This document shows, in pieces, positions 6,346 through 59,768 of a stretch of DNA of 64,000 nt. The notes below the pieces were generated by a model that was given only the letters and a program-made list of their open reading frames with translations, ran no database searches and was not told the DNA's origin. Positions within the stretch are counted from its first letter, which is position 1. Every line of letters begins with the position of its first letter. Source of the DNA: a virus; IMG/VR virus record IMGVR_UViG_3300035492_000225; one strand, 5' to 3'. The position numbers were made by a program, and so were the translations under genes.

Positions 6346-6966
6346 TTACTCTATGGTTTCACCTGGTAATGTGAAGTTCCAGGTCATTGTTTCCAGGCCC
6401 GTTCTATCACTGTTGTTGAACATGTCGTACAGCTGTCTTTCAAGTGCATGTCTCTGTGCTGTAAGATGCGCCATGGCTGGTGCAAATAACGCATCATTCT
6501 CTAACACCCTTTGCTTTAGATGACCTAATCCACCAGGTACACCTACACCGTCACGAGCATTGCTTAGATCATAGAGAAAAGGACATACGTCCCTTGGAAT
6601 GTCTTCGATGCTCGATCCAGGGTTTGCCTCCAACCATTCATCAATAGCCTTGGCTTCCTGCAGCTGAACAGTCCATGTAATAGCTTCTGATAACGGGTAG
6701 GTTGATTTTAGGTCCTGGATGATATTCTCATAATCCAAGTTGAGTTCTCCTGTACGAAGCAGGAGAAGATCAAAAAGACCCATCTTTTCTACCGGAGTAC
6801 TTGGTGGTATCGTGACAGGTTTACCATTGGCTAAGTTGGAAAGACTATATCCATTTTCTAGATCAGCAATGATCTGGTTGTATTCTTCATCGGTTACAGC
6901 CACACCATCCTGCCAAAGGTTGTGTGTCTGATTGAAGACCTTGTTCCGTTTGGAGAAATACCACAT
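6346..6966 (-). CDS. Putative tail-fibre assembly/chaperone-like protein
   Basis: N-terminus MWYFSK..VF...EYNQIIADLENG...GKPV resembles Tfa-type proteins; lies in the fibre island. Confidence 0.5.
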   Translation of the reverse strand: MWYFSKRNKVFNQTHNLWQDGVAVTDEEYNQIIADLENGYSLSNLANGKPVTIPPSTPVEKMGLFDLLLLRTGELNLDYENIIQDLKSTYPLSEAITWTVQLQEAKAIDEWLEANPGSSIEDIPRDVCPFLYDLSNARDGVGVPGGLGHLKQRVLENDALFAPAMAHLTAQRHALERQLYDMFNNSDRTGLETMTWNFTLPGETIE

Positions 6967-6978
6967 GCATCATCCCCT

Positions 6979-7368
6979 TTAATATCCGGTGACCTTTACC
7001 ATAACTGTAACACTACCTGCCAACACCACCGACTCACCTCGTAGAAAAAATGATGTCCCTTTAACTACAGAACCTGTCATTGATGTCAATGATACTGAGT
7101 TGATGGTAGCCATTACTTGTTCTTCGGCGGCCTGCGAACTGGAGATTGCCTGAGGACTGACGTGTAGAATCTCACTAAATCCTGCGTTCGAGTAGTTAAA
7201 TGTATAAGTCCCATTAACTGAAGTGACCGCACCGTACCATTCTTTCAAAGGTCTATTTATCTCACCCGATGATGATGATACGGTTCTCCATTTTCGTTTC
7301 AGTTCTTTGTTTACACTCTCTGTAAGTCGAGAGATGCTTTTTGCAAGTGCTGAAATATTTCCTGCCAT
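6979..7368 (-). CDS. Putative tail-fibre-associated protein
   Basis: S/T/G-rich beta-type sequence (WYGAVTSVNGTYTFNYSNAGF); genomic context. Confidence 0.45.
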   Translation of the reverse strand: MAGNISALAKSISRLTESVNKELKRKWRTVSSSSGEINRPLKEWYGAVTSVNGTYTFNYSNAGFSEILHVSPQAISSSQAAEEQVMATINSVSLTSMTGSVVKGTSFFLRGESVVLAGSVTVMVKVTGY

Positions 7369-7402
7369 ATTTCACCTGTACGTCACGCGGTCGGCATAAT
7401 AG

Positions 7403-7433
7403 ACCTGACTGAGAGAATGACTCTCAGTCAGGT
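7403..7433. terminator. 13-bp hairpin
   Basis: acctgactgagag-aatga-ctctcagtcaggt; no long U-run. Confidence 0.6.
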
Positions 7434-7437
7434 GGAG

Positions 7438-7548
7438 TAGCACAGGCGCCGTGGGTACATACGACGTCTCTCGACATTGCTAATTACCCTGAGAGGAAAG
7501 AGTGGACTGGATCACCCCCTTACGAGTAGACTGAGTCTACCTGTGCTA
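7438..7548 (-). ncRNA. Candidate structured ncRNA/leader
   Basis: Closing stem tagcacagg/cctgtgcta; internal gggta/taccc, ctctc/gagag and gtagac/gtctac pairings; strand assumed from neighbours. Confidence 0.5.
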
Positions 7549-7587
7549 TAGGATAGGTGATATCATTGCCATCATGTATCAACGAGT

Positions 7588-8040
7588 TTATTTCCAGTAG
7601 AACCCACCGAATACTCGAACGCCCAAGAAGAAGATACCTGCTCTCCAGCGAGCGATACCCTCACTGCGCAGTGCACGGTAGAAGATCTCATCGGCCTTTT
7701 TGCGATCGATGTTTTGGTCGGAAGTGCCTTTGTTCACATACAGGTAGTCGTGAACAGTGGCTGAGCGATCACCGTAACCAGCCAGAAGTGCATACAGACC
7801 GAAAAGCAAGACGTTCTTCAGAGCACCGATGGTAGCGAAGTCCGTTTTGAACTCTTTAGGTACGACGATTGGACCGAATTCTTCATCGAAGTACGTAAAG
7901 TCACGCAGGAGCTTACGTTCATTGCGATCGATGTACGATACTTCGAAGGAAGTAAAGCTGGTATTGGACTCATGTCCGTTATATTTAGGTAAAATATCCA
8001 CAGTGTATTTCTCTACGTTGTTAGGACATAGAATCGGCAT
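7588..8040 (-). CDS. DUF1353-like protein
   Basis: IVVPKEFKTDFATI...SATVHDYLY...RKKADEIFYRAL...G pattern; start codon uncertain (ATG lies in a hairpin). Confidence 0.8.
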   Translation of the reverse strand: MPILCPNNVEKYTVDILPKYNGHESNTSFTSFEVSYIDRNERKLLRDFTYFDEEFGPIVVPKEFKTDFATIGALKNVLLFGLYALLAGYGDRSATVHDYLYVNKGTSDQNIDRKKADEIFYRALRSEGIARWRAGIFFLGVRVFGGFYWK

Positions 8041-59643: not shown

Positions 59644-59768
59644 TGGAACAAGCGGGTGGAGTCAAACCACCACACCGGCGTGGGGCGGGTGTAAGAGATC
59701 ACCCCTTAGACGTCATGGTGTCCAAGGCTAAGTCCGAATTTCACGGTGCATGGTTTCTCAACGCCTGT
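59644..59768 (-). ncRNA. tRNA-like RNA (acceptor stem, T-arm, CCA) with non-canonical interior
   Basis: ACAGGCG/CGCTTGT, U discriminator, CCA; GGTGG-TTTGACT-CCACC T-arm; 125 nt with no standard D or anticodon arm. Confidence 0.6.

Follow-up and report, generated by a model that had tools for sequence, protein, structure and literature searches.

Does the 219-nt gap between two minus-strand ORFs of a jumbo phage genome hold an RNA gene, and does its product pair with the ribosome of the host? The question was raised by a sequence-only reading of a 64,000-nt stretch of viral DNA (hereafter the window), which pointed to a candidate ncRNA of about 110 nt carrying a complement of the 3' tail of 16S rRNA. 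The window comes from a phiKZ-like jumbo phage, as indicated by matching internal-head, DNA polymerase and core structural families, and its nearest isolate is the Pseudomonas phage pPa_SNUABM_DT01 (DT01; ligase 55%, polymerase 74%). As DT01 groups with Noxifer and phiKZ (PMC8541153), we infer from this kinship that the host of the window phage is Pseudomonas. The gap is bordered upstream by a 150-aa ORF (7588–8040, minus strand; phrog_1158/DUF1353-like), a mere neighbour that other family members lack, and downstream by a 129-aa ORF of unknown function with its own SD (6979–7368, minus strand), which is a neighbour in the DT01 clade only.

The segment 7438–7548 of the minus strand almost certainly constitutes a genuine ncRNA gene in its own right, one that belongs to phiKZ-like Pseudomonas jumbo phages. 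Through a neighbouring protein the search reached DT01, in which the gap at the syntenic position, located without use of the 16S-tail motif (arm 1), contains a homologous element with the motif intact and 14 nt of arm 1 retained. Patterns built from the ends of the element only, and thus blind to the motif, returned 29 matches, 24 of which carry arm 1, while the interiors of the remaining five are unrelated and look chance-like by eye. Scanning with the motif alone led to contigs of phiPA3, 201phi2-1 and several phages of 240–310 kb, and blastn with the phiPA3 element gave 60 records, phiKZ and PA1C among them; the Noxifer and D6 members were added after this blastn round, and a relaxed pattern, yielding mainly chance matches, contributed three members. 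Direct blastn with the window element gave no match, and the 129-aa downstream protein used as query retrieved no viral contigs. The resulting covariance model (CM) collects 35 matches, 34 of them distinct, from DT01, phiKZ, phiPA3, 201phi2-1, Noxifer, D6 and metagenomes, with a single copy per locus and per complete genome searched; its match in the window spans 7440–7546 with 79–80 bits. The phiKZ homolog is unannotated, lies between genes 203 and 204, and has an 18-mer identical to that of the window. The model found nothing significant in EL, OBP, SPN3US, RAY, PCH45, Totoro, BONAISHI, RSL2, SNUABM_37, Goslar, AR9 or phiR1-37, and among the genomes searched the family is confined to the Pseudomonas-phage branch, EL and OBP being without it. 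An enterobacterial-type 16S-tail pattern, used for a host covariation test, gave 18 matches and no family member. No Rfam 15 family reaches its gathering score at the window, phiKZ or Noxifer loci.

The proposed closed element was borne out by comparison of the 34 homologs, the closing stem being 10 bp long (7548–7539 with 7447–7438). The consensus fold comprises 24 base pairs, 18 of which show two-sided, compensatory changes, and 93% of the alignment cells are paired, as against 27–42% in slid controls; these counts are biased towards the hand structure, because the alignment was fitted to that model. MAFFT followed by RNAalifold under-called the fold because the stems were misaligned, and a hand structure with CM realignment was used in its place. 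The 5' arm of the closing stem P1 (7539–7548, minus strand, as for all elements of the fold) is paired in 99% of cells and covers, in the free RNA, a second 16S complement, arm 2; the four outer pairs covary and the three inner pairs do not. It is followed by P2 (7526–7540), a hairpin of variable length with a UUCG loop in some homologs and compensatory changes at 4/4 pairs, by arm 1, by a variable, pyrimidine-rich linker (7490–7504; 43% identity), and by P3 (7453–7489), a long hairpin with internal loops that ends in a 3-bp stem and a GNRA cap (loop 7472–7469). All three helical segments of P3 show compensatory changes, and the 3-bp stem, which also has such changes, is paired in 100% of cells. 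Arm 1 and the linker are single-stranded in the consensus fold; when sequences are folded singly, part of arm 1 enters weak, non-conserved stems with an opening cost of 5–10 kcal/mol. The H-type pseudoknot suggested by the sequence-only reading, which crossed CTCTC (7495–7491) in the linker with GAGAG (7472–7468), did not survive this comparison: both words are present, but their cross-pairing reaches at most 3 bp in 15 of 34 members, with no pattern of compensation. Indeed, the GAGA is a GNRA-type loop with a free second base, as the loop census indicates (GGGA 12, GAGA 9, GUGA 6, GCGA 2). A conserved small ORF starting from a GUG within the motif was also rejected, since the lengths differ out of frame. 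In many members the junction G-G-C (alignment A5, columns 7–12) can pair with either the P2 3' strand or the P1 3' arm, and this shared triplet is possibly a branch-migration hinge easing the opening of P1. A distant, longer version was observed at L195:2763–2908 (+), where two hairpins replace P3, P1 differs, arm 2 is a perfect 7-nt match and the CM score is 20.5 bits.

Arm 1 (7505–7522, minus strand) is complementary to 16S nucleotides 1525–1542, that is, to the anti-SD and to the 3' strand of the base of helix 45. For the sequence of the 16S 3' end we used 61 loci, mostly Pseudomonas, whose last 45 nucleotides are all identical. The complement had been read as 16 nt with one G-U (7522–7507); the motif is there, and the pairing extends over 18 nt (7522–7505) with two G-U and a duplex energy of −33 kcal/mol, the homologs ranging from −33 to −37 kcal/mol. 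A hand estimate had put the chance of a 15/16 match at 0.001–0.002, and with both strands modelled as an order-3 Markov process the value is 0.003 for 15/16 and 8e-5 for 18 nt if no more than two G-U are allowed, these values being post hoc. The next-best 16S-tail run in the window is 13–14 nt long with several G-U. The 14-nt core of arm 1 is the most conserved stretch of the RNA, with a pairwise identity of 98% over the 34 homologs against 43–51% for the linker, P2 and P3; where the motif itself served to find a member this conservation is circular, which does not apply to DT01 and the motif-blind matches. Within the core a single position varies, G or A opposite U1537 (28/6); next to the core, C or T stands opposite G1526 (29/5), and the position opposite U1541 is mostly A or G. 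In 34/34 homologs no ATG, GTG or TTG occurs within 11 nt after GGRGG, in agreement with the lack of a start codon that the sequence-only reading described for this element. Conservation of the motif, the wobble-compatible nature of its variation and the lack of an ORF strongly support selection of the ncRNA for pairing with the 16S 3' tail, and such pairing very probably takes place in vivo.

Does the RNA engage more than the tail? In cofolds with the terminal 45 nt of 16S, the 5' strand of helix 45 pairs with the 3' arm of P1 and the junction that precedes it. This second arm (7442–7452, minus strand), absent from the initial account, overlaps the 3' arm of P1 and is complementary to 16S nucleotides about 1501–1513, which comprise the 5' strand of helix 45 and the h44–h45 linker. 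When 30 distinct 3' segments were scanned along a 5.6-kb Pseudomonas rRNA operon (about 5,600 windows), 16S 1496–1516 was the best target by mean energy, narrowly ahead of the second-best, which lies near 16S 1040 (−18.2 vs −17.9), and an overlapping one was the best by worst case; the arm-2 window ranks first for phiKZ and phiPA3. Shuffled sequences reach the arm-2 energy at p ≤ 0.06 in every member. The family median of arm-2 energy is −14.2, compared with −9.7 for 86 non-family motif matches, samples that are not independent, and 10% of these controls attain the family median. For naked RNA, median binding energies are −21 kcal/mol with two arms and −13 with arm 1 alone, the median gain is 8, and the two-arm form is favoured in 34 of 35 matches. 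Randomising P1 with its pairing kept abolishes the arm-2 gain in six of the seven members tested; the exception is DT01, whose gain is not above random (8/60). A G/A toggle is found opposite U1506, the A form disrupting one P1 pair. Within the DT01 clade the conservation of arm 2 is in part circular, since the search patterns contained it, and the members are related; cases found by synteny or through arm 1, which are free of this circularity, include the best arm-2 matches (phiKZ, phiPA3, the L145 group and the distant L195, the last with 7 bp). Pairing of arm 2 with helix 45 would account for the complete lack of covariation in the inner P1 pairs and in the 2-bp base of P3. On these grounds the use of both arms seems slightly favoured. 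In the mature 30S, helix 45 packs against h44 and proteins, so arm 2 may fail to reach its target there, the energies being those of naked RNA.

The order of arms 1 and 2 is that of the reverse complement of 16S 1542–1497, with P3 replacing the middle. This arrangement suggests that the RNA began as an antisense copy of the 16S end, captured from an rrn operon, into which P3 was inserted. The RNA might then be a mere relic of that copy, or have a protein or mRNA as its true partner, with no ribosome binding in vivo. We consider this very improbable, given that the linker and P3 have drifted while arm 1 has stayed nearly invariant and that the changes are wobble-compatible, a signature of RNA pairing.

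The strand and the limits of the transcript agree with a separate gene. TATG, which we take to be the phage late promoter motif, is found in most members, its G being the first base of P1, and the others have TATAG or a similar word. The TATAG of the window (7546–7550, minus strand) is a putative late-type promoter or start, as judged also from the promoter rows of the Putzeys 2024 supplement. Downstream, a 12–13-bp hairpin (7432–7404) followed by the tail TATTATGCC (whole element 7393–7432, minus strand) matches the hairpin-plus-TTAT form described as the phiKZ terminator (Putzeys 2024); nearly all members have a hairpin with a TTAT-type tail within 70 nt downstream. A generic U-tract scan missed the terminator of the window, and the transcript probably runs on through it to about 7400. 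In phiKZ, ONT-cappable-seq places a 3' end, T095, at 213001 (+), 30 nt past P1 of the homolog, with no start site or ncRNA called there (Putzeys 2024), and the gene upstream of the homolog points away, which constitutes indirect evidence of expression. Early phiKZ Grad-seq and dRNA-seq work gives other candidates and does not report this one. The minus strand is further indicated by 36 G-U against 16 A-C cells, by the GNRA and UUCG loops and by the side on which the terminator lies. An anti-SD mimic on the plus strand was considered and rejected, as it would read CCCCC and not CCUCC in 28/34 members; a plus-strand RNA is also opposed by the wobble bias, the tetraloops, the terminator and the phiKZ 3' end.

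The genes upstream of family members fall into 18 groups in both orientations and those downstream into 11 unrelated groups with their own SD; since its flanks vary in this way, the ncRNA travels as a gene of its own. A translational switch acting in cis, one of the functions first put forward, is disfavoured by the terminator behind the RNA and by this diversity of downstream genes. A related possibility is modelled on STAB-SD of the Bacillus thuringiensis cry3A mRNA (PMC4113751), an SD-like word without a start codon that holds 30S: a subunit sitting on arm 1 would merely stabilise the RNA or a read-through mRNA, or tune the next gene. The precedent is a real one, and an analogous RNA of phage PAK_P3 heads a tRNA transcript. 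However, STAB-SD is a short cis element of an mRNA, has neither a conserved fold nor helix 45 invasion, and acts against RNase J1 in Firmicutes. Moreover, because a terminator immediately follows the phage RNA and its neighbours vary, it does not lie in the 5' UTR of a protected mRNA; its 5' end is sealed in P1, and helix 45 pairing and arm 2 would be left unexplained. We regard this possibility as improbable.

These elements can be assembled into a trans-acting antisense RNA that would use an SD toehold, unzip helix 45 and park 30S subunits, a mechanism to which we give somewhat better than even chances. A short stand-alone transcript, judging from its flanks, would be made late by the phage polymerase. 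Arm 1 would dock as a toehold on the exposed anti-SD tail, a step to which its conservation strongly points, and, according to the calculations, zip into the base of helix 45 (1525–1529), releasing the 5' strand. The freed strand would then displace P1 and pair with arm 2; P3 and the top of helix 45 would lie on opposite sides of the nested junction that results. More speculatively, without a start codon and with helix 45 open, the 30S could neither initiate nor join 50S and would remain parked, the likely targets being free, inactive-state or newly made subunits. SD sites precede 72% of the genes in the window against a background of 29%, and because phage genes use such sites, blanket blocking would harm the phage too; parking would be feasible only if it came late, stayed sub-stoichiometric or was directed at immature or idle subunits. 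Within these bounds, parking is the simplest reading of the clamp.

The same binding could also protect or store subunits for late translation, the covered 16S end resisting degradation by RNase R and other 3' exonucleases or by nucleases of host defence. An SD oligonucleotide shields 30S from RNase R in vitro (PMC10901742), the phage requires SD-competent ribosomes, and positions 1–2 of arm 1 generally pair with the terminal 16S bases. Yet 8 of the 34 members leave the terminal position unpaired, arm 1 would suffice for protection, opening helix 45 would expose further rRNA, and release from a −21 kcal/mol complex would require a factor; storage is in our view unlikely. In the cofolds the top of helix 45 is looped out between both arms, much as in guide RNAs, which raises another possibility: the arms would bracket the helix-45 loop, where the KsgA and RsmJ sites lie, with P3 presenting the rRNA to a phage enzyme, or they would act on pre-16S and stall 30S biogenesis. 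Conservation of the P3 shape and GNRA cap, with no evident rRNA target, and an arm 1 that in phiKZ reaches one base beyond 1542 are in line with such roles. There is, on the other side, no constant neighbouring enzyme gene and no conserved box C/D or H/ACA motif, and we judge a guide or maturation role, taken together, quite unlikely.

Archaeal and eukaryotic H/ACA and C/D guide RNAs, tmRNA and 6S RNA are trans-acting structured RNAs that engage rRNA or the core machinery. The phage ncRNA shares bipartite pairing with the H/ACA guides and lacks their boxes. It is no tmRNA: ARAGORN gives no hit for the window element, there is neither a T arm nor a tRNA-like domain or tag ORF, and indels do not come in threes. 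Nor does it have the domain IV loop sequences of SRP RNA: there is no Rfam match, and the internal-loop bases by the GNRA loop vary freely. The extended SD of Bacteroidota rpsU (PMC9976891) also pairs with the 16S tail over an unusual length beyond the core anti-SD, with which the arm-1 energies, all below −13 kcal/mol, agree; it is a true bS21 initiation site, whereas no start codon or bS21 ORF follows the phage ncRNA, and a link to bS21 was rejected, as a search of five family phages turned up no bS21 gene. The consensus of the Caulobacter sRNA CC2171 (RF01867) includes the same 16S-tail complement, but size and fold are unlike, only the motif aligns, and the score is 13.3 bits against a gathering threshold of 75. 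A counterpart with the two-arm layout is the PAK_P3 RNA at 85937–86017 (+; L347:238–318), detected as an ncRNA candidate with no function given (Putzeys 2024, Table S7). It is 80 nt long, with a 16-nt arm 1, a hairpin and a 7-nt arm 2 (7 bp with 16S 1504–1510); it belongs to an unrelated phage, lacks P1 and P2 and scores 12 bits on the family model, and is thus probably an analog and not a family member. That a two-armed phage antisense RNA invades and unzips helix 45 by toehold strand exchange, inactivating or remodelling the 30S, and that PAK_P3 arrived independently at the same design, is a proposal that we rate a little short of an even chance.

Complements of the 16S tail were also seen elsewhere. 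The related word at 59697–59708, which the sequence-only reading had connected to this RNA, is weaker (−22.9, with a broken helix), partly buried in a hairpin, and absent from five related genomes at one mismatch; the connection is not supported. It lies in a tRNA-like RNA (59644–59768, minus strand) with a 7-bp acceptor, a T arm, an encoded CCA and an oversized interior, for which neither Rfam nor ARAGORN gives a match. In DT01, unannotated structured, tRNA-like sequence surrounds two tRNA genes (L114:5940–6350 and 6760–7270). A separate repeated element of small contigs (L139:1050–1200; also L122, L151, L162, L187, L225) has the same 16S-tail motif and, downstream, GGCTACCG within a hairpin, with no Rfam match. 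Two recurring phage elements, L128:2970–3110 (also L130, L132, L156, L158, L160) and L120:9760–9900 (also L134, L140, L170, L176, L208), have extended 16S-tail complements with no start codon behind them, look structured and match no Rfam family. In Goslar, an intergenic stretch (87200–87412, minus strand; L253) contains hairpins, a terminator and, between them, a 12-nt SD-type match; its family membership is unproven, since it lacks arm 2 and relatives and is not supported by the CM.

The ncRNA thus represents a real and so far uncatalogued RNA family, and the comparative signature of its pairing with 16S rRNA is strong. The part of the literature covered by our search, outside which lies the 201phi2-1 sRNA set (11 sRNAs, 3 intergenic), gave no description of this RNA and no bacterial or phage small RNA that targets ribosomal RNA itself. 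If the binding is true, ribosomes would be controlled by RNA in a new manner, and helix-45 dynamics could be followed in living cells with a natural probe. The finding bears on the takeover of translation by nucleus-forming jumbo phages, so far studied through proteins (PMC10914614). With phiKZ as a tractable model phage, for which deletion, antisense-knockdown and Grad-seq tools are available, the question can be tested at once.
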